From assembly GCA_038882975.1 (NCBI GenBank), contig JAVZNE010000001.1, positions 32,001-96,000 of the forward strand: DNA of 64,000 bases. The letters run 5' to 3'. This stretch comes from Candidatus Bathyarchaeia archaeon (lineage in GTDB: Archaea > Thermoproteota > Bathyarchaeia > Bathyarchaeales > Bathycorpusculaceae). Of this stretch, positions 1 to 31,425 are shown piece after piece; position 1 is the first letter of the stretch; every line of letters begins with the position of its first letter. The notes beneath the pieces were generated by a model that did not search any database, was not told the DNA's origin, and saw only the letters and a list, made by a program, of their open reading frames with translations. A program made the translations under genes and the position numbers.

Positions 1-92
1 ACACTTGCCGAAGATGTGGCAAGCGCGTCTGCGAAGACTGCTATTTCCATCACGGAATTTGCATTGAATGTGCTAGGCTTTTAGGAAAGTAA
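1..92 (+). CDS. 3' end of a small Cys-rich zinc-finger protein (partial, starts upstream of window)
   Basis: Frame from nt 3 reads TCRRCGKRVCEDCYFHHGICIECARLLGK*, with three CxxC pairs; not in ORF track. Confidence 0.6.
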   Translation, partial: TCRRCGKRVCEDCYFHHGICIECARLLGK

Positions 93-854: not shown

Positions 855-887
855 CTTTGCTAAATTGGATACCCCCTCTATTTTTTC
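832..887 (+). repeat. Dispersed dyad+CCCCTCTA element, copy overlapping the fdhD start and the RimK-family stop
   Basis: atatcaattttg-N16-ctaaattggataccccctctattttttc aligns with copies at 41704 and 53150. Confidence 0.55.
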
Positions 888-2775: not shown

Positions 2776-4032
2776 TCAAACTTCTATGGCTATTTCAACT
2801 TTTTTCCCAGAAAAGTTTAGGATGTTCCTCTCCATGCGACTTTTATACTCAAGAACTTTTGCGGCGACATCCTTTAAGCCTTTTTCAGCTGCATCCATTT
2901 CAGCTTCTAAGTTTTCAGCCTTCTTCTTCAGCCTATCCATATGCTCTTTTAGTTTTGCCATTTCACTTTTGGCTTCAGTCAGAGTTGAGGATGCCGAAAG
3001 TTTGGCTTTACGCTGATGGGCTTCCACACATTTTTGATGCAAGCTTGCAAGTGAATCCTTACTGAGAATTTCTTCTATGGCTTGTCTTGCTTTACGCTCT
3101 TTATCCGGCTTAAGTTTGAGCTTGTCATCCGCCATAAGCCTCAGGGTTTTCTGCAAAATCTGCCTTAAAAGCGGATAACCCACATTTTCCATGGCTAAAG
3201 CCTCAAAAGAATCTTCCAAATACTGGTTAAGCTTTTTCAACTCTTCTGGTGTCAAGCCGCTTCCCTCACCGTGAGAAGCCAATGACTGAAGCTTTATGAG
3301 GGGCTTTTGAAGGTGCCTTAGGCAATATTCAACTTCTCTTCTTAAGCCGTTTATTGCTTTGTCCAACTCTGCCAAGTGGCTTAAACCGCCACTTTCCTCA
3401 AGTTCAAAGATTCTCCGTTGAACGCTAACTAATTCTTCCTCAATTTTCCCCCGTTCAGCTTCAACCCTCTTCCTCTTCTCTTTTAGGTTTGCCGCTTGCT
3501 CCTTCAATCTATTAACATCATCTATAAGCTGGAAGGTTTCCTCTAAGGCTTTAGCTTTAACATACTCTTTTGTTAGAAACTCGTTAAGCTCCTTGAGTGA
3601 GCCTTTAGCACCTTCAAAAGCCCTTAAGAATCTGCCTCTATCCATTATGAAGAAGGGCGAAATCCTTGGAAACCAGTTTCTCACGTCAACATCCGTGACG
3701 GCGTAAGCCTTCTGGGCTGTGTTAACAAAACCTTCAACGTCCTTAAAGGATGGCTTATCGGGAACCCTAATCGGCTGCATCCTTTCGAGGAAAATTTTGG
3801 CAAGCTTGTTTAGGGCTTGAGCCCTCTTAAAAGTGCGCATATTACGCTTCTCAATCTCTTTACGGCTGCTCTCTAAAAGCATACGGCAAGCATCAACCAA
3901 ACCTTGATGGGCTTCTCGCACCTCGCTGAGAAGCCTCTCAGCCTTGGCATGCACCGGACCGAGAACAGCGCTAGTTTCGCCCTCGAGCCAGCCCCTAAGC
4001 TCATTGAAAGCGATTTTAAGGCTTGTTGACAA
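2776..4032 (-). CDS. Long coiled-coil hypothetical protein
   Basis: E/K/R-rich heptad pattern; ORF track start 4230 overlaps the divergent gene, so the TTG at 4032 after GGGAG is preferred. Confidence 0.75.
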   Translation of the reverse strand: MSTSLKIAFNELRGWLEGETSAVLGPVHAKAERLLSEVREAHQGLVDACRMLLESSRKEIEKRNMRTFKRAQALNKLAKIFLERMQPIRVPDKPSFKDVEGFVNTAQKAYAVTDVDVRNWFPRISPFFIMDRGRFLRAFEGAKGSLKELNEFLTKEYVKAKALEETFQLIDDVNRLKEQAANLKEKRKRVEAERGKIEEELVSVQRRIFELEESGGLSHLAELDKAINGLRREVEYCLRHLQKPLIKLQSLASHGEGSGLTPEELKKLNQYLEDSFEALAMENVGYPLLRQILQKTLRLMADDKLKLKPDKERKARQAIEEILSKDSLASLHQKCVEAHQRKAKLSASSTLTEAKSEMAKLKEHMDRLKKKAENLEAEMDAAEKGLKDVAAKVLEYKSRMERNILNFSGKKVEIAIEV

Positions 4033-4165
4033 AGCTTCTCCCAAATAAAGATAGACAAAAGCCATATTAATCTTTAAAGTTAAAAATGTACTTATTTTTA
4101 AGTAGCTACTCTTAAATAATAATTGCGAAGATTCTCGTAACGGAAGGGGCAAGGAGCAGCAAACA

Positions 4166-4735
4166 ATGATAAAACGGGTTAAGATAAGTGCCAAAACAAT
4201 AGCAGTTATAGCCATATTCGCCGCACTCACAATCGCGTTTAATCTTTCTCCAATAAAAATACCAGCACCTTACGCGCCATACTTAATATATCAAGTGTGG
4301 GAAATTCCAATAGTTACAGCGTTCCTTCTTTACGGCTTCTTAGTCGGAATAGCCATCGCGGTACTAAATACGCTTGTATTACTCATGGTCTTTCCGGGCA
4401 TGCTGTTAACTGGTCCACTTTATAATTTGGCGGCGGTAATCAGCATGCTTATAGGTATCGCCATACCGAAAGTTATTCATAAAAACCCTAAAGCGAGCAA
4501 GCAGACACTAGCGGTTGTGCTTACGGCTTTCGGAATAGTTTTTAGGGTGGGAATTATGACAGTGGTAAACTGGGCTTTTCTTCGTTTTCCACCGCCAGTT
4601 GGATTTGGAATGCCAGAGTCGGCGATAATTATGTCTCTTCCGTTTATCGCGCTTTTTAATGCTACTTTAGCCCTTTACACTATCCCGTTAGGTTACGTCA
4701 TAGCAGAAGCAATAAAGCTCCATGCTAAGGTTTGA
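4166..4735 (+). CDS. ECF transporter S component (substrate unknown)
   Basis: About 190 aa with ~6 hydrophobic helices; AxxxA helix 1, P..PYL..xxWEIP...G pattern. Confidence 0.8.
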   Translation: MIKRVKISAKTIAVIAIFAALTIAFNLSPIKIPAPYAPYLIYQVWEIPIVTAFLLYGFLVGIAIAVLNTLVLLMVFPGMLLTGPLYNLAAVISMLIGIAIPKVIHKNPKASKQTLAVVLTAFGIVFRVGIMTVVNWAFLRFPPPVGFGMPESAIIMSLPFIALFNATLALYTIPLGYVIAEAIKLHAKV

Positions 4736-5705
4736 GGTTAAAATTAGAAATTAGGGCTTCTATCAATATTTTCGGGTTAACTTCTCCCGCGGTAAACGTC
4801 TTGCCTGTTTTCAAGTTGTTTATGGTTATTTTTGCTGGTGCGAATATGTTTGGGTCTATTTTGTAGAAGTCGTATTTGGCGGCTTTGAAAATTTCCAGGA
4901 AGGGTTTCCCATAGTCTTTTGATGCTTTTGATGGTGCTTTCTCCACTATTTTGGCGAGTCCCTCTTCGTTTTCGTAGTCGACTATGTAGTTGGTTATGCC
5001 TCCATATAGGATGGCGTCGTTGGTTCGTGCCATGGCTTTGACAAATTTTGGGTGGGTTGGCGGTATGGGAGCACATCCCCAAGCATAAAGGATGGCGTTT
5101 GGGTTGAAGCCCAACTTTGTAAGCTTGTGGATTCCCGTCTCAACTATTCTTCCAGCTACTTGTGTTGCCCCGGCTAGGCTTGCCGTCGGAGTTAATATTA
5201 AAGCCAAATTTTCGCATTGAACGTGGCAGTCTTCAGCTAACCTCCGCATAAGCCTTTCTGGCGGCACTTTGTCGGTTTCTAAGACCACTATGGCTTTATC
5301 AAATTCGTCTTTATAGCCTATCTTCTCATAGATTTCCTTTGGTTTTTGGGCTAGGGCTCTTGCCGGACCAGAGCCTATGGCGAAATATTCGCCCTCCTTA
5401 ATGTTCCATCCTGCGAACTGGGAGCCCAGAGTGGCTATTGCCGGGTGGTCTGTGTAAACAAATATTGCTGGAAGCTCGAATTCACCGTACCGCTCAAAGC
5501 CTATTTTGGCTTTTCCACATCCACCCATACAGATTTCCGTTATAACCTTGCCAGTTTGAAAGCCACCCTTAGCCTTTATTCCAGCATCCACAACTGTGGC
5601 GCCGCAATCAGCCTTTTCAACCTTCACGCCGTAGTATTCCGAGTTTTCGCAGAGCTTTTCCAATAGTTTCCATGCCAAACGGTTTACACTTAAACCACCA
5701 TTCAT
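4725..5705 (-). CDS. mch: Methenyltetrahydromethanopterin cyclohydrolase
   Basis: LSVN, ICMGG, LGSQFAGW, GSGPARAL, RIVET, TNDAILYGG, FAPA motifs. Confidence 0.96.
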   Translation of the reverse strand: MNGGLSVNRLAWKLLEKLCENSEYYGVKVEKADCGATVVDAGIKAKGGFQTGKVITEICMGGCGKAKIGFERYGEFELPAIFVYTDHPAIATLGSQFAGWNIKEGEYFAIGSGPARALAQKPKEIYEKIGYKDEFDKAIVVLETDKVPPERLMRRLAEDCHVQCENLALILTPTASLAGATQVAGRIVETGIHKLTKLGFNPNAILYAWGCAPIPPTHPKFVKAMARTNDAILYGGITNYIVDYENEEGLAKIVEKAPSKASKDYGKPFLEIFKAAKYDFYKIDPNIFAPAKITINNLKTGKTFTAGEVNPKILIEALISNFNLKP

Positions 5706-5723
5706 TGGCTGTACTCTCCTATT

Positions 5724-6551
5724 TTAGAGAAGCTTTTCATAATGGCTTAAATGGGGGTTTGGCTCCTTAGCCACATAAAGCTTGCCCCTACCATTTTCCG
5801 TTAAGTCTCCAAGGAAGAGGTAGAAGGGCGCTTCCACCACTTCGCCCTCTTCGATTTTAACCTTCTTTCTCACACCTTCAATTGTAAATGTGGGGAGAAC
5901 CGACTCTAAAAAGCCGCCAACAATTATTGTTCCATCCGTCATGCATGCCCCAGTCCTTCCGCCGCAGTCTTTCTGCACATAGATTGTGCCACCATGCATT
6001 CTGAAGCCCGCAAACTGTCCGGCATTTCCATAAATTTTTATTAAGCCTTTCTTCATGTGGGCTCCGGCTTCATTTCCAACATTTCCATGCACAATTATTT
6101 TTCCGCCTTTCATGCCTTCTGTGCTTCCACGGTATGGTGCACCCAGATAGTCGCCAGCGTTTCCGTGGATTTCTATTGTTCCACCCTTCATCATTGAGCC
6201 AGCCCAGCCCAAAACATTGCCGTAAACGGTTATTTTTCCGCCTCTCATTTCTTCGCCTAAATGCATGCCAGCGTCGCCTTTAACAACTATTTCGCCGCTT
6301 CTCATGCCGGCGCCTATTCGCCTTACATGGCTAACATTTCCATGAATTGTTATCACAGTTGCTTCTGAGGCGCCTTTCTCCTTTGTCACTTCAACTTTGA
6401 AGAGTTCTCCAAGCCTTTTCTGCTTGTTCCCTTCCCAAACCTCCAGCTTTTCAATTTCTTTCGGCTTTTTCCCTTGGAAAATATCTGGGTTTATGCAGTC
6501 AGCCATTATTGGCAGTTTAAACTCTTTTAATGGGTATAAGTTCACAATCAT
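5724..6551 (-). CDS. fwdC: Formylmethanofuran dehydrogenase subunit C
   Basis: Repeated GxxMxGG beta-helix motif; coupled to fwdA. Confidence 0.95.
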   Translation of the reverse strand: MIVNLYPLKEFKLPIMADCINPDIFQGKKPKEIEKLEVWEGNKQKRLGELFKVEVTKEKGASEATVITIHGNVSHVRRIGAGMRSGEIVVKGDAGMHLGEEMRGGKITVYGNVLGWAGSMMKGGTIEIHGNAGDYLGAPYRGSTEGMKGGKIIVHGNVGNEAGAHMKKGLIKIYGNAGQFAGFRMHGGTIYVQKDCGGRTGACMTDGTIIVGGFLESVLPTFTIEGVRKKVKIEEGEVVEAPFYLFLGDLTENGRGKLYVAKEPNPHLSHYEKLL

Positions 6552-8242
6552 TAAACATCAGCCTTCACGGTTATTGGTTGAGAAATTGCCAAATAATCCT
6601 CACTTACGGGGTAATTCTCAAACTCAACAGTCCAATACTCTTTGAATCGCCTTTTCATTTCCTCTGTTATTTTTGCCTCTTCGCTGGTTTGCACGTCTAG
6701 CCACATGGTTGCTCCTTCAATGTGTTTTAGGACTTCTCCGTCCTTAACAACCACTTGCCCACTTTTGATGGTGTAGGCTGCCCTTTTGAAAGCCCTCCTC
6801 AAAGCCTTATACTTCTTCGACGGGTCCATGGTTTCCGGATTAAAGTTGTATATGGCTATGTCTGCGTCTGCGCCAACGCCCAAGTGTCCCTTGTTTTTAA
6901 GCCCTAGGGCTTTTGCTTGCCCCGCCCTTGTCACTATGGCTATTTCATAGAAGCCTAATTCACGGTCTATTGTTGGGAGGAGGCTTCTGCTTCTGGCTTT
7001 TGAATTAATCTTTTTCAGCGTGGCTTCTCTGGCTTTTCTGCTCATAAGCCAAGCCACAATCCTCGGATAAGCGATAAATGGTCCACCGTTGGGGTGGTCC
7101 GTTGTCATTAAGATTTTCCACGGGTCTTTAATTAGGAGGACTAGTTCCAGCCCAATAGACCATTGTGTTGCGTGAACGTAGCTTTTCCTCTTATAGTGGA
7201 ATGGCACAATTCCGGCGCTTGTTTCTGTTTCAACGTCGTGGTTCACCCACTTGTTTCCGCTTAAAGTGTAGAGTATGTATTGGAATGGGCCGTCAGCCGT
7301 CATTGTTGTGGTGTCTGTGAATATTACTTGCCCCATGTCCATTGTCACATGGGAGTGTGCATTAACGTAGTTGGCTATTTCCTCCGCTCCGGATTCGAAG
7401 GTTCTCCAGTCGTCGCCTTTGAAGGCGCTGAACTGGCAGTGGGTTATGTGAATTACTGGCTTATTGTCTTCGGCTAAATCCTCCACACATTTCATTGTTT
7501 CCAAGGCTGTCACATAGTTGCCCGGCTTCCCAAGGTTGTTTGTGTGCACGTGGATTGTGTGTGGCAGGTTTAGAAGCTTATTAACTTTGCACAATCCGCG
7601 GATGATCTCGCGGGGTGTAATCCCGAAATATGGGACTGGGTCGTCTATGTTTTTTACGTTGCGCCCAAAGCCCCAAGCCTCAAGCCCTCCTGGGTTGACA
7701 AGCTTTATCGCGTAGCCCTTAGTCGCCTTAATCATCCATGCCACGTGGCGGGCGCACTCCTCTATTTTGCCGTCCCTCAAATATTCGAGGACAAACCACC
7801 AGTCGCCTATCAGTGGATAACTAGACTTATCAATTATTGGCGTGTCGCTTAACTCTTCATGGGTGTGTTTCGCCTCCAGTGGTGGCATGGCTGGGTCCAT
7901 AACTGTTGTCCAGCCCATCCTAGCGTAACGGTAGCCGGTTGTAAAAGTGGATGGAATAGAATAGCCCACACCAGACCTTGTTACGGCTGTTTTGCGTTCA
8001 AAATCCTTAAAGTGGTCTTCTGGGCGTAAAAGCCTACCGGAGTTCACTTTTCCTCCAGCTATGTGGCTGTGGATGTCAACCCCGCCTGGCATGACAACCA
8101 TTCCGGAGGCATCAATCTTCTTTGCTCTTCGCTCGTTGACTTTCTCAACTATTTTGCCGTCTTTTATGGCTATGTCCATTTTTTCTCCGTCAACACCGTT
8201 AATTGGGTCGTAAACGAAGCCGTTTTTTATTAGAAGCTCCAT
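6551..8242 (-). CDS. fwdA: Formylmethanofuran dehydrogenase subunit A
   Basis: DIHSH, KLVNPGG, HxHTNNLG, TTDHPNGGPF amidohydrolase motifs. Confidence 0.97.
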   Translation of the reverse strand: MELLIKNGFVYDPINGVDGEKMDIAIKDGKIVEKVNERRAKKIDASGMVVMPGGVDIHSHIAGGKVNSGRLLRPEDHFKDFERKTAVTRSGVGYSIPSTFTTGYRYARMGWTTVMDPAMPPLEAKHTHEELSDTPIIDKSSYPLIGDWWFVLEYLRDGKIEECARHVAWMIKATKGYAIKLVNPGGLEAWGFGRNVKNIDDPVPYFGITPREIIRGLCKVNKLLNLPHTIHVHTNNLGKPGNYVTALETMKCVEDLAEDNKPVIHITHCQFSAFKGDDWRTFESGAEEIANYVNAHSHVTMDMGQVIFTDTTTMTADGPFQYILYTLSGNKWVNHDVETETSAGIVPFHYKRKSYVHATQWSIGLELVLLIKDPWKILMTTDHPNGGPFIAYPRIVAWLMSRKAREATLKKINSKARSRSLLPTIDRELGFYEIAIVTRAGQAKALGLKNKGHLGVGADADIAIYNFNPETMDPSKKYKALRRAFKRAAYTIKSGQVVVKDGEVLKHIEGATMWLDVQTSEEAKITEEMKRRFKEYWTVEFENYPVSEDYLAISQPITVKADV

Positions 8243-8243
8243 T

Positions 8244-9701
8244 TTAGGCAGCCTCCCCCATCTTCTTTTTTATCCGCCTAACTTCAGCCAGTATCCGCCT
8301 CAAAATCTCCTCGTCTGGGAGGATGCCCCTCGGCGGGTTCACCACCTTCTTTAGGGGTATGGGCACGTGGTCCATTCGGTAGGCTGTTCCAGAGGCTTCT
8401 ATGCCAACAAAAGCCGATGGAATGAGCACGTCAGCCATTTGGGCTGTCACATTCATATGGGGGTCAATAACTATTAGGGGATTTTCCACAAGATGTTCAG
8501 CAGCCTTTCTTGGAAAGTTTGAAACTGGGTCTGAAGCCACTATTAGGGCGGCGTCGGACTCCTTCCGAAGCAAAACATCAACAACAGAAGTTTCGCCCGG
8601 ATTATACCGTGGATAGCCAAGGGAGAAGTCCACCGCGTATGGGTAGCCCGTCTGCCAAGTGAAAACAGTGTTGGCGCCGGTCACGTTAAAGTGTCCCCGC
8701 ATTGGCATTATGACGAATTTTGTCCGCATGTTTAGGTCCCGCACCAATGAAAGCGCTGCGTCTATGTTTCGCAGTTTGCCACTGCTCATTGTTAAGCCAA
8801 GCCCAAAGAACAGGGCGCCAAAATCGCAGCTTACCATGGCGTCGGCAACCTCCTCCAAATACTCTACTGGAACACCAGCCACTTTGTCAACTTCAAGCTC
8901 TTGGTCTCGGATCAACGCCCTAAAAGCCTGTAAAAGCTCATAGTCCTTGTTGGGTTCAACTTGCACGAAGTAGTCTGCAATTTCAGCCGACTTTGTCCGC
9001 CTAACATCAATCACTATAAGTTTTCTGCCTTCCTTGGTTATTGACGGGTAGGGCTTATACTCTGAAACTGGTGGGGGAACCGGCGCCGGCTTTTTGAAGA
9101 AGAGCCTTTTTATGGCGCTTTGAATCTTTTTCTGCCCAACCAAAGCCTTAACCTTGTTTACGTAGCTTCTCCATGCACTTTTCTCGAATCTTCCCTCTGA
9201 GAAGGCTGTATAACGCTCTATGTGCCTTGGATGGGCGCTCCAAGGGTTGCTTCCCCAATAAACTATTAGGTCGGCCCTATGCCTAATCTGTCCCAAAGTG
9301 CATGATGGAATTCCCACGTCTTGGATGCTCAAAATTGATGGTCCATGGCAGACAACGGAGGTGTTGTCTATTACTCCGCCAACTTCTTCGGCTAGTTCTA
9401 TGCCTACACTTATGGCTTCACAGCTTGTGTTACTCCAGCCGTAAAGCACTGGATAGTTGGCTTCAGCCAAGATTTCGGCAGCCCTTCTAACAGCCTCTTT
9501 GAGGGTTGTCTTGACAAGTTCGCCGTTCTTCCTTATCATGGGCTTCAAAACCCGATGCTCGCCGCAGTATCCCAAAAACTTGGCTTCACACATGGCGCAG
9601 CCATTCTTAACCTTAACTATACGCCCATTTTCAATGGTTAGTTCTATATCGTCGCATAGGCTTCCACAAACAGGACAAGTCACAGCCTTAACAACTGGCA
9701 T
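8244..9701 (-). CDS. fwdB: Formylmethanofuran dehydrogenase subunit B (Cys-type, with an internal insertion)
   Basis: CPxCGxLCDD, VCHGP, CTLG, HPRH, PMRGHFNV, GTAYRMD. Confidence 0.96.
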   Translation of the reverse strand: MPVVKAVTCPVCGSLCDDIELTIENGRIVKVKNGCAMCEAKFLGYCGEHRVLKPMIRKNGELVKTTLKEAVRRAAEILAEANYPVLYGWSNTSCEAISVGIELAEEVGGVIDNTSVVCHGPSILSIQDVGIPSCTLGQIRHRADLIVYWGSNPWSAHPRHIERYTAFSEGRFEKSAWRSYVNKVKALVGQKKIQSAIKRLFFKKPAPVPPPVSEYKPYPSITKEGRKLIVIDVRRTKSAEIADYFVQVEPNKDYELLQAFRALIRDQELEVDKVAGVPVEYLEEVADAMVSCDFGALFFGLGLTMSSGKLRNIDAALSLVRDLNMRTKFVIMPMRGHFNVTGANTVFTWQTGYPYAVDFSLGYPRYNPGETSVVDVLLRKESDAALIVASDPVSNFPRKAAEHLVENPLIVIDPHMNVTAQMADVLIPSAFVGIEASGTAYRMDHVPIPLKKVVNPPRGILPDEEILRRILAEVRRIKKKMGEAA

Positions 9702-9704
9702 CCA

Positions 9705-10115
9705 TTAACCCTTCCTAAAAACTGTTTTAAGAAGCTCCTCCAAGCCCAGAACAGGCTTGTCTGGAGCTGGCTCCACAGTGGCCGGAATCCCCTTAAAGGA
9801 TGGCATACCAATGCCATGAGTTTCAGGGTCAACAACAACGTTCGCCCAAAGACCATAAGGGATAAACACCACACCGGGATGCGGCGCCCTCAAAGATTTC
9901 TTGGCTTTAACCACCACAGAGCCGAAAGCTGTTGAAACTTGAATGTTTGTTCCATCTTTTACGCCGAGCTTTTTCATGTCTTCTGGATCCATGTAGCAGA
10001 CTGAGACGCTTTCCACATACTCTTTGGAGGATTTTCCCCGCTCTTTTCCAGCGCCCTGCTCTATTGTCCGTCCAGTCAACAATGTAACTTTAAGCTTAGG
10101 CTTTTCTTCCATCAC
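9705..10115 (-). CDS. fwdD: Formylmethanofuran dehydrogenase subunit D
   Basis: TGRTIEQG, FIPYGxWAN, GMPSFKG. Confidence 0.94.
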   Translation of the reverse strand: MMEEKPKLKVTLLTGRTIEQGAGKERGKSSKEYVESVSVCYMDPEDMKKLGVKDGTNIQVSTAFGSVVVKAKKSLRAPHPGVVFIPYGLWANVVVDPETHGIGMPSFKGIPATVEPAPDKPVLGLEELLKTVFRKG

Positions 10116-10271: not shown

Positions 10272-11234
10272 TTATGGTCTGTAGCCGCCCAGAACAGCCA
10301 ATGCAAGGGCAGCCGCAATAATGTCCGCTGTTGTTCCCGGATTTAAAAGATTGCTTTCTTTTCGCAGCATGGAGTCAAATTCGCGGAGCCTTTCCCTCCC
10401 AATGGCGGTTTTAAGCCCGCCGCTTTTCAAGACTTCTTCAGCCACGGCTGAGACTTCGCAAGCCCTTTTAAGCCCGACCTTTCTTGCGATAAATGTGTCT
10501 GGATGCTTAGCTAAAACTGCAAGGAAAGTATGGATTATCGCTGTGTTTAGGTCTCCATCATCCTTAAGATTTCGCATTAACATTGGATAGGCATATTCGA
10601 AGGTTACTGGGTAATTGTTAACCCATTCTGAGCAAACCATGTCATAGGGTGAGGCTATTTTAAAAACTTGGTAGAGCGAAATTCTCTCATCAATAATGCG
10701 TTTCACAGAGTTTGGGTCATTAACGTCTAGGTCTGGTGCTTTTCCCAAACCGCTGGGCTTGGCAATCCCAACAGCCTCATAAACTGCAACGGCATCGTCA
10801 GGCGTTGTTGCCTCAACAACCCTTCGCAGGTTTTGCCTCAAAACAGAAAGGTTGAAAACACCTTTTTCATCCGTTGTCATGCCAGCCGCCACAGCCAAAG
10901 GCATAAAAAGGATTATTGTGCCAAGCAGCGTGTTGCCGCCACTCTGCCAAGCATGCACGTCGGCTACACAATCGCGGATAATTCTTCCAACACCAACATC
11001 TTCCACGCCTATATCGCCATTTAAAACGGCTATGCCCCGTTCAGCAGCCAACCTAAAATGGGGAGCCGCCGCCACAGCAGAAGCCAAAAAATGCATGTGA
11101 TTGGTGCCCTCGAAACCAACCACCAGGTTCACGTTTCCAGGCTTGTCAGCACTAACTTCAAGGAGGATAGCTAACTCTAAACAGCGCGAAACATGCTCAG
11201 CTTTGTTGAACGGGAAAGGCATCAAACATTGCAC
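10272..11234 (-). CDS. citG: CitG-family triphosphoribosyl-dephospho-CoA synthase homolog (archaeal H4MPT-linked type)
   Basis: LEVxxxKPGNV, GNTxLG, PDTFIARK, NPGTTAD motifs; true start may be at 11222. Confidence 0.9.
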   Translation of the reverse strand: MQCLMPFPFNKAEHVSRCLELAILLEVSADKPGNVNLVVGFEGTNHMHFLASAVAAAPHFRLAAERGIAVLNGDIGVEDVGVGRIIRDCVADVHAWQSGGNTLLGTIILFMPLAVAAGMTTDEKGVFNLSVLRQNLRRVVEATTPDDAVAVYEAVGIAKPSGLGKAPDLDVNDPNSVKRIIDERISLYQVFKIASPYDMVCSEWVNNYPVTFEYAYPMLMRNLKDDGDLNTAIIHTFLAVLAKHPDTFIARKVGLKRACEVSAVAEEVLKSGGLKTAIGRERLREFDSMLRKESNLLNPGTTADIIAAALALAVLGGYRP

Positions 11235-11321
11235 CTTACAGTATATTTTGCATGGAAAGGCTTATTAACGTTGTGTAAAAAATTACACAGCAATTACCAA
11301 AAATACATAAGGTGGAGCAAA

Positions 11322-12071
11322 ATGCTGCGAAAATATTTTGCAAACGTTTTTCTCTTGGCTTTAACTGGAGTTTGGACGGCTCTGAACTTGGCATTTGCAT
11401 TGATACCAACATACCCGATTTTGGGAACACCAGCAGTTATAACATTGTCTGGAATCGTTTTTTCAGCATTAACAGCCCCTCTACTCGGTCCATTTTGGGG
11501 AACCATTTCAGGCTTCATATTTGGGTGGCTGGTTCCCTACGTGAACCCATCAACAAATATGGGTTTGCTGACATTTCTCGGACCGACCATGTGCGCATTG
11601 ATGGGCGGACTACTGCTATTTAACAGATGGAAAGAGGCGACACTAGTTCTCGCAGTCCAGCTGGCTGTATGGTTTGCCCATCCATTTGCATGGTACCAAT
11701 TAATGCCAATTATAACATGGCAGTACATACCAGTCGCAATATTTATTCTCGTACCGCCGATAAGAAAATGGATTATAAACGCCATAACAGCCAGAGACAA
11801 CCCAACAAAAATGATAGTAGCCCTATGGTGCCTCGCATGGACTGCACGAATAGGCGGCGAAGTGGCAGCCAGCAACAACAATGCCGTTTGGGTTTTGGGT
11901 TGGGGCGTTCCCGAAATGTATGCTTTCTGGGCGCCATTGACAGCCTATTATGCCATTGCTGACTCACTGAACAGTCTTGCAGGAGCCATCATTGGGGCTG
12001 CGGTGCTTATGGCGCTTAAAAGGACTAATATAAGGACCCTCGCAATAGATTCCTTGGAGTCCAAGACTTGA
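11322..12071 (+). CDS. ECF S-component-like membrane protein (about 250 aa, 7-8 TM)
   Basis: N-terminal ALxxxxxxIP.PI.G...T.S....LLGPxxG pattern typical of S components; ATG at 11322 follows GGTGGAG; stop overlaps next start (TTGA). Confidence 0.65.
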   Translation: MLRKYFANVFLLALTGVWTALNLAFALIPTYPILGTPAVITLSGIVFSALTAPLLGPFWGTISGFIFGWLVPYVNPSTNMGLLTFLGPTMCALMGGLLLFNRWKEATLVLAVQLAVWFAHPFAWYQLMPIITWQYIPVAIFILVPPIRKWIINAITARDNPTKMIVALWCLAWTARIGGEVAASNNNAVWVLGWGVPEMYAFWAPLTAYYAIADSLNSLAGAIIGAAVLMALKRTNIRTLAIDSLESKT

Positions 12072-13099
12072 GAAAAACGTTGGCAGAACTGCGAGAAGGA
12101 TACCTCATAGAGTCTGTTGAGGGCGTAATCTTTGACGTGAAGGGGCTAGTTCACCCGCCAGACAAAGTAATAGCTTTCCCCCGTTTTATTTCAGACTTGA
12201 AGGGTCCCCGCATCCGCAAAGGTGTCAGATACGGCAAAGTTTATAGTCTTTCTGAAAGGTTTGCCTTTCTTAAAAGAGCCATTCCAGAGTGTGTTGTCCA
12301 CGACCCAGTTTTTGACGAGAAACTTTGCGAAGTTCCACTAGAAAAGGTCAAAAAAGCCTACAGTCCAGTTGAGGGCTTAAGAAGGCTTAGGAAAAGCGAA
12401 AAACTTGATAGTCTTGAAAGGACGGCTCTACAATGCCTCACGACTCTAAAGGAAAAAGCGAAAGTGCCATGGAACAAACTTGGGGTTTCTGGTTCAGTTC
12501 TGGTTGGCTTGCACACCATGGCTTCAGACATCGACCCGGTCGTTTATGGCACTAAAAACTGCCGAAAAGTGCACGCAACCTTAAAGAAACTGCTTGAGGA
12601 GGGCGACACGCCTTTTAAACCCTACAGCTTAGAGGATTTGCGGAGGCTTTTCGCTTTCCGTTCGAAAGACACTTTTATGAGCTTCGATGACTTCGTAAAG
12701 GTCGAGTCTAGAAAGGTTTTCCAAGGCAAGTTTATGGATAGAGACTATTTCATCCGTTTTGTAAAGGACTGGAATGAAGTTGGCGAGAAGTATGGTGATG
12801 TCCGCTACAAGAATTGTGGTTATGCGAAGATTGAGGCGGTTGTTGTTGATGATTCTGAAGCCATATTCACGCCGTGCACCTACAAAATTGAAAATGTCAA
12901 GATTGTTGAGGGACCAAAACTCGAGCCAATAAGGGAGATTGCATCCTTCCGCGGAAGGTTCTGCGAACAAGCGAGGAAAGGTGAGACTGTTGTGACGCAG
13001 GGAAAACTTGAACAAGTAATGGACTATAGAAGTGGCTATGAGTATTTTAGGCTGCTTCTTGGGAATAAGCCCACAGACTACATGATTCTAAAAGGCTAA
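12068..13099 (+). CDS. Predicted pol-beta-superfamily nucleotidyltransferase (COG1665-like), paralog 1
   Basis: GVSGS-x9-SDID motif; N-terminal FxVxGxxHP; C-terminal OB-like SFRGRFCEQA..GE..GKLE. Confidence 0.85.
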   Translation: MRKTLAELREGYLIESVEGVIFDVKGLVHPPDKVIAFPRFISDLKGPRIRKGVRYGKVYSLSERFAFLKRAIPECVVHDPVFDEKLCEVPLEKVKKAYSPVEGLRRLRKSEKLDSLERTALQCLTTLKEKAKVPWNKLGVSGSVLVGLHTMASDIDPVVYGTKNCRKVHATLKKLLEEGDTPFKPYSLEDLRRLFAFRSKDTFMSFDDFVKVESRKVFQGKFMDRDYFIRFVKDWNEVGEKYGDVRYKNCGYAKIEAVVVDDSEAIFTPCTYKIENVKIVEGPKLEPIREIASFRGRFCEQARKGETVVTQGKLEQVMDYRSGYEYFRLLLGNKPTDYMILKG

Positions 13100-14178
13100 A
13101 ATTTTGATGGCTCTGCAACCTTTAAAACTTGCTCGTAATAGCGAGGTCCATAGGTTAATGTTATTTGGTGGAAGCCCCCGCCGTTTCGCAACTCAACTTT
13201 TTCAAGGTTTCCTTCAGCATAAACGGTCTCATCCTTCCACGCCTGCATCCTAAACTCCTCAAGATAGGAGACAACCCTTCTCAAGTCCTCAACCCTTGGA
13301 CCCCCAACAATCTTAACAGTTTCAACATGGTAGATTGAGGGCATGAAAAGCGCTTCAGAATCATCCTTTACGCGGAGATAAGCCTTAACCCAACCTTCAC
13401 GGGTTATCCTCATAATTTGGCTGTATTCGTTGATGATTTCGCTCCAGCCTTTAACAGGTTCAAACTCAACCTTAATAGCCCTTTTAGAAGCCTCGTCGCG
13501 GAAAACTCCATAGATTGTTTTGCGCCTCTGGTGCCAGACAAACTCTTTTGGGCTTATGTTCTTGAAGCGCCAAGCCTTTCCTCTGATGGGTGAGTCGTCC
13601 TCAAACTCGTTGGAAAACCGCGAGCCTTTATCCATGTAAAGCTCTTGTAGAATTTCTCGTATCCGCTCCAAATTTTTCCTGCCATAAACAACTATGTCGA
13701 TGTCAGAAAACCTCGAATGGTAAAAGCCTTGGAGAAGCGAACCGAAAACACCAAAATCCTCCATGGATAAGCCAGAACGGACCACGGTTGCTTCAAGAAC
13801 CTTTTGAAGGGCCTTTAAAAGCTCGTCTTTAGGCTCTTTTTCAATAAGCCTTTTTAGGGCTTCTTCCGGCTTTCTGACACTCGCCACATCAGAGTGCCTC
13901 ACGCCTACAACTTTTCTACCAATAGGCTCATGCAAAATCATGTATTGCGGAAAGTTTGCCTCAACAAAACGCCAGCCCTCATCCTCATAAAACTTGTAAA
14001 AGACATTTGCGCCGTCGGTCCGGTAAGCTTTCGGGTTTGAGGATTCGAAAAGGCTGGAAGGCGCATACTCAGCATCACATATGAAACCGCCTGGAGGGTG
14101 AGTGTAGCCAAAAACTCGGAAAATCAAGCCTTCGGGTGTTACTATTGCGTCCCGGTCCCTAAGCCTTAAACTGGCCAA
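13096..14178 (-). CDS. Predicted nucleotidyltransferase (COG1665-like), paralog 2
   Basis: [28 protein letters not shown]. Confidence 0.85.
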
Positions 14179-15203
14179 ATGTACTCTTCCTCGCTGCCAG
14201 CGGTTCCAACAACAACTTGATGGAACGCTTCGCCACTCCCAACTTTTTCCACACGTTCCAGCATGCCCGAAACTTCCATTTTTTGGCCGTTTTTGGCGAC
14301 GTTTCTATAGCATCCAATCATGGAGACAACAGCCTCCGGAACCATTTCCTTTGGAAGCTTTGAGATTTGGCTTAGCGGCGTATAGTCTTCAATTTTGTAT
14401 ATGGCTGGGCGGAACATGGCTTCACTGTCGTCTTTAACTTTACATTGGAATCTAACCGAGGCTATTGGCGTGTAGAAGTATTCGCCATATTTGGTTGTTA
14501 CTTCCTCTGGTTTGCGGACGGCATTATACATGAAAATCTTTTCGCGGTAACGCCCCTTAAACCGTCTCGCGGCGTCCAAACGGTTGTTAAACACATAGCT
14601 TAGGGTTCCCTCCTCAACAAGCTTGTCAATCGCCTTTTCCACTTTTCGGAAGTTTCGGCTGCCGTAAACAACTATGTCAATGTCTGACTCTTGAGAGTGC
14701 ATGTTTAGGGCTATGGAGCCGTGAACACCAAAATCTTCAAGGGCGACTTTCGAAGCGTTGGAAACCAAATCCAAAAAATCAAGCGTCATCCTCTGCAGTT
14801 TATCCAGCCTTTTCATCTTCAAAAGCCTTTGAAGACGTTCCAAAGGAACGTACACTCGCCTAATACTTTCTAGTGGTGCGCTGATGACTTCCTTTTTTCT
14901 GAAGGGACAGTGGTAAACATAGTCTGGGAAGTTTCTCCTAAAAACTTCTAGGAAAGTTTGGTAGTTTTTCGCCGTGTAGAGCTTCTCAGCCCTAAAAAGC
15001 TCAGTTTCCCCATAACGCCACGTCCTTTCTAAAAGGCGAACGCTGAAGAGTTCTTTGAACTTTGATGGAATGTATTTTAGAAAGGCGAAGACGTGCTTTT
15101 GTGGGTGCTCATAGCCAAAAACGTTTAGTATGAAGCCTTCTTTGGTTGTGAATGTGTCTCCGTCCGTTGGAAGCCAGTTTTTAGGCGCAGCCGTCAATGT
15201 CAC
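14166..15203 (-). CDS. Predicted nucleotidyltransferase (COG1665-like), paralog 3
   Basis: [28 protein letters not shown]. Confidence 0.85.
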
Positions 15204-15298: not shown

Positions 15299-15769
15299 GT
15301 GAGTTCCCTACATCCCTATGTAGTTTTTCTTCCAGCCGAGGAAAAAAATCGCATACTAAGTGCAATTTTCGGCTCTAAGGCTTCCCTTGCCATTTTAAGA
15401 TTCTTCCTTAAAACCGGAATTTCGAACAAGGTTTACCAGAAAGACCTTGTTAGGAAGCTTTCTTACTCAAACAAGACGATAATTGAAAACTTGAAAACTT
15501 TGACCAAGCTTGGAATCTTAACGGAGAATATGGAGAAAACGCAGCATGAAGGACGTGTGGTTTGGGTTAAATTCTATAAGCTTTCGGACGCTGGAAAATG
15601 GTTCGCCCTTCTTTTAGCAGAGGAAAAGGAACTTACGGACAAGGAAAAGGCGGAAGTACTACAAAACATTTTCAGAAGCTACATAAAATGGGTAAAAAAC
15701 CTATCGGAAAAACTCCACATGGAAAAAGCTACGTTTAAAAGAATCTTTAGCGAAGAGATGGCAAGTTAG
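15299..15769 (+). CDS. Winged helix-turn-helix transcriptional regulator
   Basis: Helix-turn-helix YSNKTIIENLKTLxKLGIL followed by wing ...YKLSDAGK. Confidence 0.75.
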   Translation: MSSLHPYVVFLPAEEKNRILSAIFGSKASLAILRFFLKTGISNKVYQKDLVRKLSYSNKTIIENLKTLTKLGILTENMEKTQHEGRVVWVKFYKLSDAGKWFALLLAEEKELTDKEKAEVLQNIFRSYIKWVKNLSEKLHMEKATFKRIFSEEMAS

Positions 15770-15945: not shown

Positions 15946-17139
15946 CTATAGGGCTTTGAAGGCTTCAAACCACCTGTTGTATAGAGCTAGCATGTCGAGG
16001 GAAACGCTTGGTTTTCGCTCTTCAAGAATCTGCCTAAAATCACTCATGCGCAGAGGTCTTGGCTTGGCAAGCTTATTCGATGCTTGACCAGACTCGAAGA
16101 ATTCACCTATAACTTTTAGGTGGGCTGCTTGGCAGACATCTTTTATGTCGCTTCCTGAAAAGCCTTCTGAAAGCCTAGCCAACTCATGCAAGTCCACATC
16201 AGGGGCCAAAAGCAAATTGCTTGTATAATGTTTAAACATCATTAAGCGGGCGTGGTGGTCTGGAAGCGGCACGAGGATGCGCTTTTGGAAACGCCTAATG
16301 AAGGGCCAATCCAGATCCCAAGGCTTGTTTGTAGCGCCGATAACGTAGACGTGGATGTTTTTACCCTTGTCTATTATGCCGTCCATTTCCTTCAAAAACT
16401 GGTTTCGCACCCGAACTTCGCCGCCCACTTCGTTAGAATGCTTCCCCATCAAAGAGTCCAACTCGTCAATGAAGATTATGGCTGGCTTCTTATCATCCAA
16501 AGCAGATTTTCTAGCAGATTCAAAAAGACGGGCAACATTCTGCTCAGCTTCACCCAACCACTTGGACATTATCGAGGCGGCATCCACAGAAATGAAAACC
16601 GCGTCAATTTCTGTTGCAGCTGCCGCTGCCAACAAGGTTTTGCCGCATCCGGGCGGCCCAAATAGAAGTATGCCCCTAGGCCAGCCAAGTGGAAAAAGGT
16701 CTGGCCTTTGAACTGGGTAGATTATGGCTTCCTTTATGGCTTTCTTTGCAGTGTCAAGTCCAATAACTTCGTCCCATTTCACGTTTGGCTTTTCCTTAAC
16801 GATTAGATCTTCGTAGCTGGCCTTCTTTTCTTCGCCTGTTTTTGCTCCTTCAACACCTTTGGCTTCCATTGCTCTTGGCTCTGTTGAGCCAACTGCTCCC
16901 TGCAGCACCTTTATTCTTTCCTGGTAGGCTATAGCCCTTTGAATGTAAACCTTGTTTAGGCTGTAGTCTGGATAAAGCTGGACAAGCTTCAGAAGAGTTT
17001 CTATGGCCTTCTGATACATGGTTATAGCCATGCCCCTTGCCCCCTGCTTGTCAAGGCGAACAGCCTCTAATGCGTAATTTGTGGCGGATTTTTCAAGTTC
17101 CTGCGACGCTTCCATGGAGAGTTCACCTTCTAGCTTCAA
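15946..17139 (-). CDS. cdvC: CdvC / Vps4 AAA+ ATPase with N-terminal MIT domain
   Basis: MIT helices (A..A..LDKQG..AI..Y..AI), Walker A GPPGCGKT, SKWLGE pore loop, IDELD, C-terminal FKAL; likely start at ATG ~17115. Confidence 0.95.
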   Translation of the reverse strand: MKLEGELSMEASQELEKSATNYALEAVRLDKQGARGMAITMYQKAIETLLKLVQLYPDYSLNKVYIQRAIAYQERIKVLQGAVGSTEPRAMEAKGVEGAKTGEEKKASYEDLIVKEKPNVKWDEVIGLDTAKKAIKEAIIYPVQRPDLFPLGWPRGILLFGPPGCGKTLLAAAAATEIDAVFISVDAASIMSKWLGEAEQNVARLFESARKSALDDKKPAIIFIDELDSLMGKHSNEVGGEVRVRNQFLKEMDGIIDKGKNIHVYVIGATNKPWDLDWPFIRRFQKRILVPLPDHHARLMMFKHYTSNLLLAPDVDLHELARLSEGFSGSDIKDVCQAAHLKVIGEFFESGQASNKLAKPRPLRMSDFRQILEERKPSVSLDMLALYNRWFEAFKAL

Positions 17140-18040
17140 TCTTTATCTTGCCCTTAGCCCCAAGACTTTGAAGAGCCTTCTCAATATCCTCATATGAGGC
17201 GCCCAACTCCCGAGAACAACGTGTCAAGTCTATTTCGCCTCCGCTTTTCCGAACATATTCCAGGAGGGCTTCTTCAAGGGTTGGTTTTCCAACTCGAAGC
17301 GAAATCTCCTGAATTTCAGCCTTTCTAAAGGAGATGAGTTGCTGAGAGTTGCTCCCTTCAGTTTCGATGGTTTCGCCGCCCACGGATTGGGAGCATGAAG
17401 CGGCTAGGGCAACCATCTGCTTAATCTGGGCTTGGGCTGGCTCAAGTTTCACCTCCAATTGTGGTGTTGGTGTTTCCTCCTGCATAGCGGGCGGTTCAGG
17501 AAGTTTCTCAGCTAATCGCTTCTCCAAGAAACTTGAAACTTCTTTCAGAATCTGCTCTCCAGCCGGCGTAACTCTGTCAACCGGAATTACCACTTCATCA
17601 GCGGATATCTTTGTGGAATAAATTGTCTCGCCTATAACGTCGTTGATTTCGCTAAGTTCTGAGGAGACCTCAGGCAAAACATTAAAGAGCTGTTTGGAAA
17701 CGCTTTGGAGAGTTCTCAAAGCTGGCTTTAGGTCTATGATTATGTCGCTTAGCTCTTTCACGGTTTCGAGGCGGAGGATAACCCTTTCAATTGCAAGCTC
17801 CACTTGCTGGAGAAAATTGATTAACTTTCGAACTTCGGCAAGCTCATTTGCGCATATTGCGGCTCTTTCCTTGTTGTTGGTTCTCAGCGCCGTTACGCAT
17901 GTCTGGAATAGGCTTTTGTCCCTCTCCTTAAGCCTCAGCGACGCTTGAACTACTCTGTGTTGTTGTATTCGCAGTTTATGCACCGACTTGATTATAACTT
18001 CCCGTAGTGGTGGAGGGGTTTGGGTGAAAGGATTTTTTAT
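17123..18040 (-). CDS. cdvB: CdvB (ESCRT-III/Snf7 core, MIM2-like motif, C-terminal winged helix)
   Basis: ANELAEVRK..ERVILRLETV core, KLPEPP, C-terminal wH; frame stays open upstream of the GTG at 17983 to an ATA at 18040 preceded by GGAGGGAG. Confidence 0.88.
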   Translation of the reverse strand: MKNPFTQTPPPLREVIIKSVHKLRIQQHRVVQASLRLKERDKSLFQTCVTALRTNNKERAAICANELAEVRKLINFLQQVELAIERVILRLETVKELSDIIIDLKPALRTLQSVSKQLFNVLPEVSSELSEINDVIGETIYSTKISADEVVIPVDRVTPAGEQILKEVSSFLEKRLAEKLPEPPAMQEETPTPQLEVKLEPAQAQIKQMVALAASCSQSVGGETIETEGSNSQQLISFRKAEIQEISLRVGKPTLEEALLEYVRKSGGEIDLTRCSRELGASYEDIEKALQSLGAKGKIKIEARR

Positions 18041-18071
18041 TTTTGCTCCCTCCGCCCGCTACGCAGAAGCC

Positions 18072-18797
18072 CTAAATTCCGGATTCGCCTGCTTCTTTCA
18101 CGTAAACTATGACTGGTGGTTCTGGAAGACTTGGAGACGGGGGAGTTGGGGCTTCCTCAACATGCTCTTCAGCAACTGTTTTCGGCGGCGCCTCTCCTAA
18201 CAAAATATTTGAAAGCTTGCTCTTCATACTTTCAAGGTCTGTCTTCTCCAAATTCGCCCTCTTTAGGCACTCTTGAATCGTCGTGAATGCCGCCTGATAA
18301 GATTGGTCGTCAACCTCGCCTATTTCATGCTCCACTTCCAAGTGGACAAGTGCATAATTTAGTTCTCTAATCTCCTGGTTGCATCTCTCAATCTCTTTAT
18401 CGATTCTTTCCAGCATGGTTTGGGCTTCACTTTTAAGCTGGTTTAGGGCGCCCTCAAAACTTCTATGCAAGTCCTCATAAACTTCTGGTGAAATCTTCTT
18501 TTTCTCCAGAAGCTCTTTTAGGGCCTGGTCTTTACGCCATATAAGTGGAATTTGGTCGCAGAAAACCGAGGTGTCATATTTAACTTTTGAAAGGAAAATT
18601 ACGTCTGAGCCTTCAACCTTTATGGTTCCAGCCGGATACTTAACGAAGCGCCCATCACTGTGCCTTATGTAAACGGCGTCCACCACACCATGGGGCTTTA
18701 CAGCTAAGGATGCTACCTCGCCTATTGGGCGTCCATACTCATCTTTAACGACTTTACCAAGGGACAAAAAAAGATTGGAGTCTTGCGGCATAGACAT
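18072..18797 (-). CDS. cdvA: CdvA-like protein (PRC barrel + coiled coil + C-terminal ESCRT-III-binding peptide)
   Basis: GKxVKDxYGRxIG PRC start, helical core with HEIGE, C-terminal PEPPVIVYV; lies upstream of cdvB-cdvC. Confidence 0.9.
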   Translation of the reverse strand: MSMPQDSNLFLSLGKVVKDEYGRPIGEVASLAVKPHGVVDAVYIRHSDGRFVKYPAGTIKVEGSDVIFLSKVKYDTSVFCDQIPLIWRKDQALKELLEKKKISPEVYEDLHRSFEGALNQLKSEAQTMLERIDKEIERCNQEIRELNYALVHLEVEHEIGEVDDQSYQAAFTTIQECLKRANLEKTDLESMKSKLSNILLGEAPPKTVAEEHVEEAPTPPSPSLPEPPVIVYVKEAGESGI

Positions 18798-18812
18798 TCC
18801 TCCATCATATTG

Positions 18813-19475
18813 CTAAGATGTTTCCGTTGGGGATTTTTCTGGCAGCGGCACTTGCGGGATTCCCGCCGGAAGCTCTGGGAACTTCTCCTTAATTCTCTGC
18901 TCAGCAACAGCGGCAGCCTCTGTGAGTATTTTTTGGGCGTCTTCGTTGGCAGTTTCAAAGTTTATGGATAATCCTGTGCTTTGTCCAGCCTCAACTATTA
19001 TTCCACTTAGAAGGTTGCCTATTTGCCCCAACTCCCTCTCCGCTTCTGGGAAGATGTTAGCCATTCCAGTCTTTACAGCTCTTAGAACGCTTACTGCGGG
19101 GCCAAGGGTTGAAACTACGTCTCCAAGCTCTGATACCGTGCGTAATCTTAAGACTATTTGTTCGAGGGCCAATCTAGCCTGCATAATCATCTTTTCCATT
19201 TTCCTTATCTCAGCCAACTCATTGGCGAAGACGTTTGCCCGTGCCATGTCATGCTTTGTGTAAGCATCAACAATTCTGGCAAATATCGACTTATCTCTCT
19301 GGCTAAACCTTTCACTCGCTTGGTCTAGCTTCTGTATTTGGAGTTCTATGCGGCGGACAGCCATGTCAAGTCTCGGCTTTAATGGACCTGGCGGCCTAAC
19401 AGCCTCTTTAATGCGTTCTGTTAGTGGTTGCTCGTCGCGTCTCTCATCCCATCTTCTACTAAATCTTTCTGACAA
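18813..19475 (-). CDS. ESCRT-III/Snf7 family protein (CdvB1/B2-like, no wH domain)
   Basis: PLKPR..RARxxANELAEIRK..LEQIVLRLRTV..GD, C-terminal KFPELP; TTG at 19475 follows GGAGG. Confidence 0.9.
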   Translation of the reverse strand: MSERFSRRWDERRDEQPLTERIKEAVRPPGPLKPRLDMAVRRIELQIQKLDQASERFSQRDKSIFARIVDAYTKHDMARANVFANELAEIRKMEKMIMQARLALEQIVLRLRTVSELGDVVSTLGPAVSVLRAVKTGMANIFPEAERELGQIGNLLSGIIVEAGQSTGLSINFETANEDAQKILTEAAAVAEQRIKEKFPELPAGIPQVPLPEKSPTETS

Positions 19476-19695
19476 GCTTGATTCCTCCAAGAAGAGGCTT
19501 AAGGGGCTTGGCAAATCTTTATACATTCTTAATATGCCCGCATTATCCACGTATATATGTAGAGCTATATGTGCCGTTTGAAACCTCTTTGAGCTTTAAT
19601 TTTCCAGTGAAAAGAACTCCTTGCTGCTTTTTCAGAAATAGACAAAAAAGTGTAAGTTAGACTAAAAAGAGGCCGATAATTCAATTCTAGGCTAG

Positions 19696-31423: not shown

Positions 31424-31425
31424 CG

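Follow-up and report, generated by a model that had tools for sequence, protein, structure and literature searches.

The closest described relatives of the locus reported here are the CitG/CitX pair of citrate lyase and the MdcB/MdcG pair of malonate decarboxylase. In these systems, CitG lets the ribose hydroxyl of dephospho-CoA displace the adenine of ATP, which gives an alpha-linked 5-triphosphoribosyl product, and CitX or MdcG then moves the phosphoribosyl compound to a serine hydroxyl with the loss of pyrophosphate (PPi). The tail of methanopterin consists of ribitol and an alpha-linked ribose 5-phosphate, the phosphate of which is esterified to 2-hydroxyglutarate. To our knowledge, the enzymes of the last steps in building this side chain (alpha-ribosylation of ribitol and formation of the phosphodiester to 2-hydroxyglutarate) have never been identified, and our literature search, with supplements and subscription papers outside its reach, found no enzyme named for them. 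Here we describe a cluster of five genes that brings together a CitG homolog, a membrane gene and three nucleotidyltransferase (NTase) paralogs. It occupies positions 10272-15203 of a stretch of 64,000 nucleotides, called the window below (contig JAVZNE010000001.1, positions 32,001 to 96,000), from the genome of a member of the Bathyarchaeia (GCA_038882975.1; 1.42 Mb, 94.7% complete). We give about an even chance to the reading that these genes assemble the tail of a methanopterin-type one-carbon carrier, in a module that is probably linked to salvage, with the chemistry of CitG and the NTases extrapolated from the systems named above.

The five genes stand at the positions assigned to them in the initial annotation, and the arrangement it had described was found again in all its parts. 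The CitG-family homolog, a member of an archaeal subfamily, lies on the minus strand (10272-11234; PF01874, E 2.7e-70). Diverging from it, on the plus strand, is a gene for a polytopic membrane protein, a putative and remote FolT/RibU-like S component of the energy-coupling factor (ECF) type, with a longest open reading frame (ORF) at 11193-12071 and a likely start at about 11322, taken from the family alignment. Its stop overlaps the TTG start of NTase1 (12068-13099, plus strand) in the sequence TTGA at 12068-12071, so that the two genes appear coupled. NTase2 (13096-14178) and NTase3 (14166-15203), both on the minus strand, converge on NTase1; NTase1 and NTase2 share 4 nt at their 3' ends, and the stop of NTase3 overlaps the start of NTase2 by 13 nt. 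Paralogy of the three is supported by 34% (NTase2) and 33% (NTase3) identity to NTase1, and they are the sole family members in the source genome. On the other side of the CitG homolog, on the same strand, fwdD (9705-10115) follows after 156 bp, and fwdB, fwdA, fwdC and mch come after it in this order leftwards, so that a block of methanopterin-/methanofuran-dependent one-carbon genes (4725-10115, minus strand) flanks CitG. In this block, TIGR03120, TIGR03122, TIGR03121 and TIGR03129 are matched above their cut-offs, and the match of FwdD to NF042908 (126 bits) is below its cut-off.

The CitG homolog and the NTases are tightly linked in other genomes. When the CitG and NTase searches were cross-tabulated over an even sample of 121 Thermoproteota genomes, both genes were found in 51, CitG only in one (a weak match, E 1.4e-9), an NTase only in seven and neither in 62. 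Among 41 relatives, 34 carry an NTase and 32 carry CitG; both are present in 32, only the NTase in two, only CitG in none and neither in seven. Judged by coordinates, the two genes lie on one contig within 5 kb in 28 of the 32 relatives that have both. It needs to be mentioned that raw genome counts overstate the number of independent events, as kin are not independent, and that counts at the family level are fairer.

We also collected 80 CitG loci from named records, using a 10-sequence CitG alignment as the query and taking 10-kb flanks. An NTase was present within 10 kb of CitG in 37 of these 80 loci, many of the NTase-less ones being short contigs, and all 37 come from records titled Bathyarchaeota/Bathyarchaeia, Thermoproteota or 'uncultured archaeon'. 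The order that recurs in them is a D-type and a C-type NTase, then a B-type NTase that converges on them and has the membrane gene ahead of it, and a diverging CitG. Because this arrangement is found again in many genomes, it is not a chance juxtaposition. The letters denote four NTase groups, A to D, which are found across Bathyarchaeia and were delimited by BLAST to the three copies of the window and by a quick tree, in which several forks are open and some branches long. The source genome has groups B (NTase1, the CitG-adjacent type), C (NTase2) and D (NTase3), and adjacent A and B pairs occur in several other lineages. In four Sulfolobaceae genomes a single, shorter NTase lies between CitG and a DUF1464 gene, and the block there reads CoaBC, GNAT acetyltransferase, (metallophosphoesterase fragment), CitG, NTase, DUF1464. 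DUF1464 is also seen in methanopterin clusters of Bathyarchaeia and Hadesarchaea, and is a further candidate gene for the methanopterin pathway.

Presence of the NTase follows methanopterin-type cofactors. As markers of such cofactors in the 121-genome sample we used mch, or a full-length match to beta-ribofuranosylaminobenzene 5'-phosphate synthase (beta-RFAP synthase, MptG) at E <= 1e-16. We found mch in 30 genomes and full-length MptG in 42 (33 of them over the curated cut-off), the union being 60. An NTase is present in 58 of these 60 marker-bearing genomes and in 0 of the 61 others; put the other way, every one of the 58 genomes with an NTase has mch or matches MptG over its full length. 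At the family level, 19 families have both the markers and the NTase, and 10 have neither. The initial annotation had taken missing co-occurrence or synteny with citG or tetrahydromethanopterin genes as evidence against its proposal; we found the NTases to co-occur, and to be syntenic, with both. Neighbours of CitG or the NTases in the fetched loci include an MptG-like GHMP kinase, an MptH-like pterin-binding protein and a DmrX-like flavoprotein with a ferredoxin domain, further an MptE-like kinase, DUF447, DUF1464, a RimK-type ligase, a CofE-like protein and an amino-acid-kinase-family protein, and likewise ftr, mtd, fwd and mch.

It is the cofactor that the NTase follows, not the mch pathway: the NTase-bearing families without mch include Sulfolobaceae. 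A review describes the serine hydroxymethyltransferase of Sulfolobus solfataricus as selective for the modified folate sulfopterin (PMC3697235). Methanogens carry one NTase per genome, and this holds for 30 of 30 sampled genomes in the phylum of a Methanocaldococcus genome and for 61 of 61 in the phylum of a Methanobacterium genome. The Methanocaldococcus ortholog is flanked by a 311-aa ORF and by a 490-aa ORF rich in short repeats. In one sampled genome (G048), both the NTase copy (contig C50, 11969-12979) and mch (contig C4, 2340-3273) have several in-frame stops, which may mean either decay of the pathway or an assembly problem.

A genetic link between CitG homologs and methanopterin has also been known from bacteria. 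Mutants in orf7, the CitG homolog of the bacterial islands, are reported to lose the cofactor. A bacterial 'mch-orf5-orf7' methanopterin island is listed in the literature (PMC3615186), and a Methylomonas gene table has mch, an alpha-L-glutamate ligase and triphosphoribosyl-dephospho-CoA synthase as neighbours (PMC11533326). We considered a link to F420 rather than to methanopterin and dropped it; the neighbours include few CofE-like or CofD genes, and the distribution among genomes tracks MptG and mch. In the source genome, a CofE-like protein (partial F420_ligase match, E 3.7e-22) is encoded directly after thyX (within 223000-232000 of contig C1), and its family adjoins CitG in seven other loci. 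This protein may be an enzyme of the methanopterin tail rather than of F420.

The source genome appears to use the cofactor and to lack early genes of its synthesis. It has fwd, ftr, mch, mtd and the carbon monoxide dehydrogenase/acetyl-CoA synthase (CODH/ACS), and on this gene content it is predicted to run a methanopterin-dependent pathway. We found no MptG match in it, only weak hits which are probably other GHMP kinases, and purpose-built hidden Markov models did not detect MptH-like, MptE-like, DUF447 or DUF1464 genes there. MptG and DUF447 (PF04289) were not found in five near-complete close relatives either, of which four share its genus and one its family. In the order sample, MptG is present in two of 41 genomes (two of the 27 high-quality ones) and mch in 37 of 41 (all 27 of high quality). 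What the source genome keeps is CitG, the three NTases, a RimK-type ligase, the CofE-like protein and the membrane gene. Scarcity of MptG, combined with the retention of mch, CitG, the NTases and a transporter-like gene, suggests that a precursor is salvaged and that the tail is then assembled on it. The lack of mptG in this lineage had not been seen in the initial annotation, and it moves the interpretation away from plain de novo biosynthesis, in the direction of salvage combined with assembly of the tail.

The membrane gene had been called S-component-like from its sequence, and this description stands at the family level. Among 13 aligned members, 8 match PF07155 and 7 match PF12822, and the best PDB match of the family profile is the folate ECF S component 4z7f (E 8.9e-7), with RibU next. 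For the protein of the window itself the description finds no such support: it matches nothing in Pfam, even at E <= 0.1. Equivalents of the gene adjoin CitG in 17 of the fetched loci. The gene is not adjoined by EcfA or EcfT, and an EcfT gene (PF02361, E 1.7e-34) lies elsewhere in the genome, at 346002-346619 of contig C1. All 13 sampled genomes that have CitG, NTase and mch and lack MptG carry the membrane family. Thirteen genomes of the phylum sample, 12 of which belong to that MptG-less set, have a member of the family as a neighbour of CitG or an NTase, and only one of the 13 strongest matches to the family (E < 1e-50) comes from an MptG-bearing genome. Weaker members also occur in lineages without CitG or NTase, and the family is therefore broader than a role in salvage.

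Two more paralogs of the membrane protein are present in the source genome. The one within 19000-31000 of contig C2 stands beside an ATP-grasp ligase in a cluster with ftr, an frhB-like gene, mtd and an Mpt_N-domain gene, and the one within 231000-240000 of the same contig overlaps the end of a full-length CofE gene. As their neighbours are an ATP-grasp ligase and CofE, each paralog is paired with an enzyme that builds a cofactor tail, which suggests that pairs for salvage plus tailing may exist for more than one cofactor.

The CitG homolog is a full-length member of its family and stays far from the CitG and MdcB equivalogs. It matches PF01874 with 237.7 bits (cut-off 27) over profile positions 2-283 of 284, and PDB entry 3h9p with E 5.4e-15; a profile of the archaeal homologs aligned to E. 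coli CitG gave an hhalign probability of 98.8% over 264 columns. The cut-offs of these equivalogs, above which dephospho-CoA would be implied as the substrate, were not reached (TIGR03125, 39.5 against a cut-off of 272.3 bits; TIGR03132, 41.8 against 282.35; NF002315, 50.7 against 280), and these models align to the C-terminal third of the homolog only. Because it stays so far below these cut-offs, we regard it as a distinct subfamily. The acyl carrier protein (ACP) of citrate lyase and malonate decarboxylase, which the initial annotation had not seen in the window, is not found anywhere in the 94.7% complete genome when searched with PF06857; the E. coli control was positive.

The NTases belong to a large archaeal family, with 1368 representative clusters at E <= 0.001 (391 if the limit is set to E <= 1e-30), whose database names are only 'hypothetical' or 'nucleotidyltransferase domain-containing'. 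Pfam and NCBIfam hold no model specific to the family. PF01909 (cut-off 21 bits) is weakly matched by NTase2 (26.3 bits) and NTase3 (25.1 bits), and NTase1 stays below it (17.3 bits). All three copies had been said to share GS-x9-SDID; NTase1 and NTase3 do, and NTase2 has GS-x10-SDID. In 115 family sequences collected from the loci, both Gly and both Asp of the motif are kept in 115 and the Ser in 114, and all three copies of the window keep these residues. The pattern agrees with the metal-binding motif hG[GS] ... D-x-D of the pol-beta superfamily. An extra acidic pair in the palm (E238/E240 in NTase2) is limited to group C (29 of 115), and a Glu of the oligonucleotide/oligosaccharide-binding (OB) domain (E326 of NTase2) is nearly invariant (107 of 115). 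With the motif intact, the NTases are predicted to be capable of catalysis.

An AlphaFold model of NTase2, made with a 114-sequence alignment, is of high confidence (predicted local distance difference test score, pLDDT, 96.3; predicted template modelling score, pTM, 0.92) and consists of an N-domain (up to about residue 115), a minimal pol-beta palm (117-243) and an OB fold (257-360). For the palm, the closest structures are TdT, TUT1, Pol beta and MenT (Z 6-6.8), a modest similarity which is consistent with the motif, and the OB fold is nearest to SSB, MCM-N and RPA at Z of about 7. Nothing in the PDB matches the full-length model over its whole chain, the best Foldseek hit (E 2.2e-3) covering the OB fold only, and the NTase profile matched PDB sequences at chance level only (best E 0.64). 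The N-domain modelled alone (pLDDT 94.5) found no clear match either, with a best Z of 4.2 in VIA (Lsm, MazF and KOW-like barrels) and a best E of 0.17 in Foldseek (CcdB), yet we do not claim that this predicted domain is a new fold. A single prediction of an NTase2-NTase3 complex, run with no controls, scored 0.00 and speaks neither for nor against a heteromer.

The genomic evidence backs the partnership of CitG with the NTases and their assignment to the pathway rather than the individual chemical steps, which are proposed below by analogy. In the first step, the FolT-like S component would import a pterin-bearing precursor, import being proposed because mptG, which acts early in the pathway, is missing from the lineage. 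The side chain ends in a free hydroxyl, to which the CitG homolog would then attach a 5-triphospho-alpha-D-ribosyl group from ATP, with release of adenine; in methanopterin the acceptor would be the 5-OH of ribitol, in parallel to the action of CitG on dephospho-CoA. In the third step, the NTases would use the triphosphoribosyl compound in the way that such enzymes use a nucleoside triphosphate, joining its alpha-phosphate to an acceptor hydroxyl, in methanopterin that of 2-hydroxyglutarate, with release of PPi. This would be the logic of CitX and MdcG carried out by an unrelated pol-beta family. Finally, the paralog groups might form mixed oligomers or serve different acceptors. The initial annotation had proposed late methanopterin chemistry for CitG and the NTases; co-occurrence and synteny make the role in the pathway its best-supported part, and no kinship of the NTases to CitX, with which it had suggested a comparison, was detected.

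Several observations weigh against assembly of the tail by CitG and the NTases. The profile of the NTase family (114 sequences) gave an hhalign probability of only 0.8% against E. coli CitX (PF03802), a comparison to a single-sequence template and thus of limited sensitivity. The matches listed in the fold searches include no MdcG, which is not evidence against a kinship to that enzyme. An Altiarchaeales genome has CitG beside an MptG-like gene and no full-length NTase. Three near-complete relatives (G028, G032, G034) have mch and neither CitG nor NTase, and because they use mch without either, the pair is not obligatory for the mch pathway. As the order is mostly without mptG, plain de novo synthesis is not the whole story here. 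Besides, White's extract work reportedly may have named phosphoribosyl pyrophosphate, not ATP, as the ribosyl donor. Seven sampled genomes have an NTase without CitG, and these would suit a scenario in which the NTases act in synthesis of a methanopterin-type (or other deazaflavin/pterin) cofactor, but not on the product of CitG; for example, they could make an NDP-activated intermediate by nucleotidylating a phosphorylated hydroxy acid or cofactor, as CofC/CofD do for the lactyl phosphodiester of F420. Such a role would show the same phyletic nesting and the same methanopterin synteny, and CofE-like and CofD genes do lie beside CitG in some loci. Nevertheless, the tight link to CitG (both genes in 51 sampled genomes, one alone in 8; adjacency in 28 of 32 relatives) speaks against it, fewer unknown enzymes have to be assumed if a triphosphoribosyl donor is used directly, and we regard this scenario as unlikely, if worth bearing in mind.

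The nearest folds (TdT, TUT1 and Pol beta for the palm; SSB, MCM-N and RPA for the OB fold) are those of nucleic-acid enzymes and binders, which also weighs against our reading and could mean an RNA or DNA substrate. In that case, the NTases might be enzymes of RNA or tRNA 3'-end tailing or of some ribose-linked modification that share the phyletic pattern only, and it fits this idea that the gene is universal and single-copy in the sampled methanogens. On the other hand, a housekeeping role on RNA would not predict that the family is missing from all 61 marker-less genomes, the conserved neighbours are genes of small-molecule cofactors and not of RNA processing, the fold scores are in the range that the tool itself calls common arrangements, and OB folds bind non-nucleic ligands too. 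We hold a nucleic-acid function to be improbable. The prospects are no better for the idea that CitG and the NTases put a phosphoribosyl-linked prosthetic group on a protein, in the manner of holo-ACP synthase. This is the sole chemistry so far demonstrated for partners of CitG (CitX and MdcG), and the N-domain, for which no structural match was found, and the OB fold could serve as docking sites for a protein; but the genome-wide search that was positive in E. coli found no PF06857 carrier, no conserved gene for a small acidic carrier protein was seen beside the cluster in the fetched loci, and no similarity of the NTases to CitX was detected. That the genes are neighbours by chance, with unrelated functions, is scarcely credible, even though strands differ inside the cluster and CitG and NTase do not adjoin in the methanogen and Asgard loci fetched (a further point against the partnership): the adjacency recurs across Bathyarchaeia families and Sulfolobaceae, the phyletic patterns match, and the counts already contradict such an accident. 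The role of CitG and the NTases in tailoring a methanopterin-type cofactor remains the best-supported reading, and the cluster probably supplies the long-missing late steps of methanopterin synthesis.

Other genes of the window can be placed around this module. A RimK-type ATP-grasp ligase (878-1756, minus strand) and a metallophosphoesterase (1833-2765, minus strand) belong to families found near CitG in 12 and 7 loci, respectively, the window included, and both may help to build the tail. Between the metallophosphoesterase and mch is an ORF for 484 aa (2776-4230, minus strand) without a Pfam match at E <= 1e-6; relatives of it were found in 16 fetched loci, and it is conserved in the one-carbon gene neighbourhood. 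FdhD (81-854, minus strand) lies to the left of the RimK-type ligase. Together with the CODH/ACS (cdh) cluster (53532-60564, minus strand) and molybdenum-cofactor genes (moaA-, moaB- and moaC-like; 30473-34168, minus strand), it fits a Wood-Ljungdahl pathway of the archaeal type, in which Fwd carries a molybdo- or tungsto-pterin. On the right, 95 bp from the divergent NTase3, there is a gene for a small winged-helix regulator (15299-15769, plus strand) with weak Sta1/Lrs14/MarR-like matches; its family is present in 14 related loci, and it could control the NTase operon. A complete Cdv/ESCRT-III cell-division cluster (15946-19550, minus strand) lies directly to the right of the NTases and comprises CdvC (15946-17139), a CdvB-like gene (17123-17983), CdvA (18072-18797) and a CdvB1/B2-like gene (18813-19550), all on the minus strand. 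These Cdv neighbours were found again in about 20 related loci.

The logic of CitG plus a transferase was already known, as was the genetic link of CitG homologs to methanopterin. As far as our literature search reaches, the new element is a proposed NTase partner of N-domain, palm and OB fold that tracks methanopterin-type cofactors across archaea. Within the same limit, a second new element is that a gene resembling folate transporters stands beside CitG where the core pathway, by all indications, has been lost widely. Two candidates are hereby nominated for the missing steps, a CitG homolog and an uncharacterised, widespread NTase family, and single-copy orthologs in tractable methanogens and in Sulfolobus acidocaldarius make both of them testable. 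The results also suggest that many Bathyarchaeia with the archaeal Wood-Ljungdahl pathway depend on neighbours for the core of the cofactor, which bears on cultivation and on carbon-cycle models. A bolder scenario, which we find rather doubtful though attractive, would be that the order cannot make the methanopterin core and imports a pterin-arylamine precursor via the FolT-like S component, and that CitG and up to four NTase paralogs rebuild or remodel the tail with different head groups, the same NTase family being the missing phosphodiester-forming enzyme in all methanogens and, for sulfopterin, in Sulfolobaceae. If true, this would amount to an economy of cofactor remodelling comparable to that of cobamides, and it would imply methanopterin variants not yet described.

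How does the locus compare, then, with the systems that resemble it? The bacterial islands for dephospho-tetrahydromethanopterin share with the window a CitG homolog (orf7) accompanied by mch and by an alpha-L-glutamate-ligase-type gene, which in the window is the RimK-type ligase at 878-1756. Unlike methanopterin, the bacterial cofactor is without the terminal phosphate and hydroxyglutarate. CofC and CofD of F420 synthesis likewise make a phosphodiester that links a hydroxyl of the ribityl type to a 2-hydroxy acid, by way of a nucleotide-activated intermediate, but they differ from the locus in fold (CofC being MobA-like), in their use of GTP as the donor and in having no CitG. The S components FolT and RibU are matched by the profile of the membrane family, and an EcfT is encoded in the genome; the resemblance is very remote, however, for a protein without a Pfam match of its own whose gene does not stand beside EcfA/EcfT. 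With the minimal pol-beta NTases (TUTases, the palm of TdT and Pol beta, cGAS/CD-NTases, MenT) the family has the G-S ... D-x-D motif and the palm fold in common. Unlike them, it shows no match to a helical second NTase domain and has an N-domain of its own and a fused OB fold, and a third acidic residue at the strand usual for pol-beta NTases is present in group C only.

The comparison to CitG/CitX and MdcB/MdcG remains the most instructive one. As in these systems, a CitG-family gene is paired here with a gene of the nucleotidyltransferase superfamily, and the logic we propose is alike, with triphosphoribosylation from ATP followed by a PPi-releasing transfer to a hydroxyl. Unlike CitX, to which it has no detectable similarity, the NTase of the locus combines an N-domain, a minimal palm and an OB fold; furthermore, no ACP acceptor was found, and the CitG of the locus lies far below the equivalog cut-offs. 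Because the genomic company of the locus consists of methanopterin genes, the acceptor in this archaeal version of the system is probably a small hydroxy acid.

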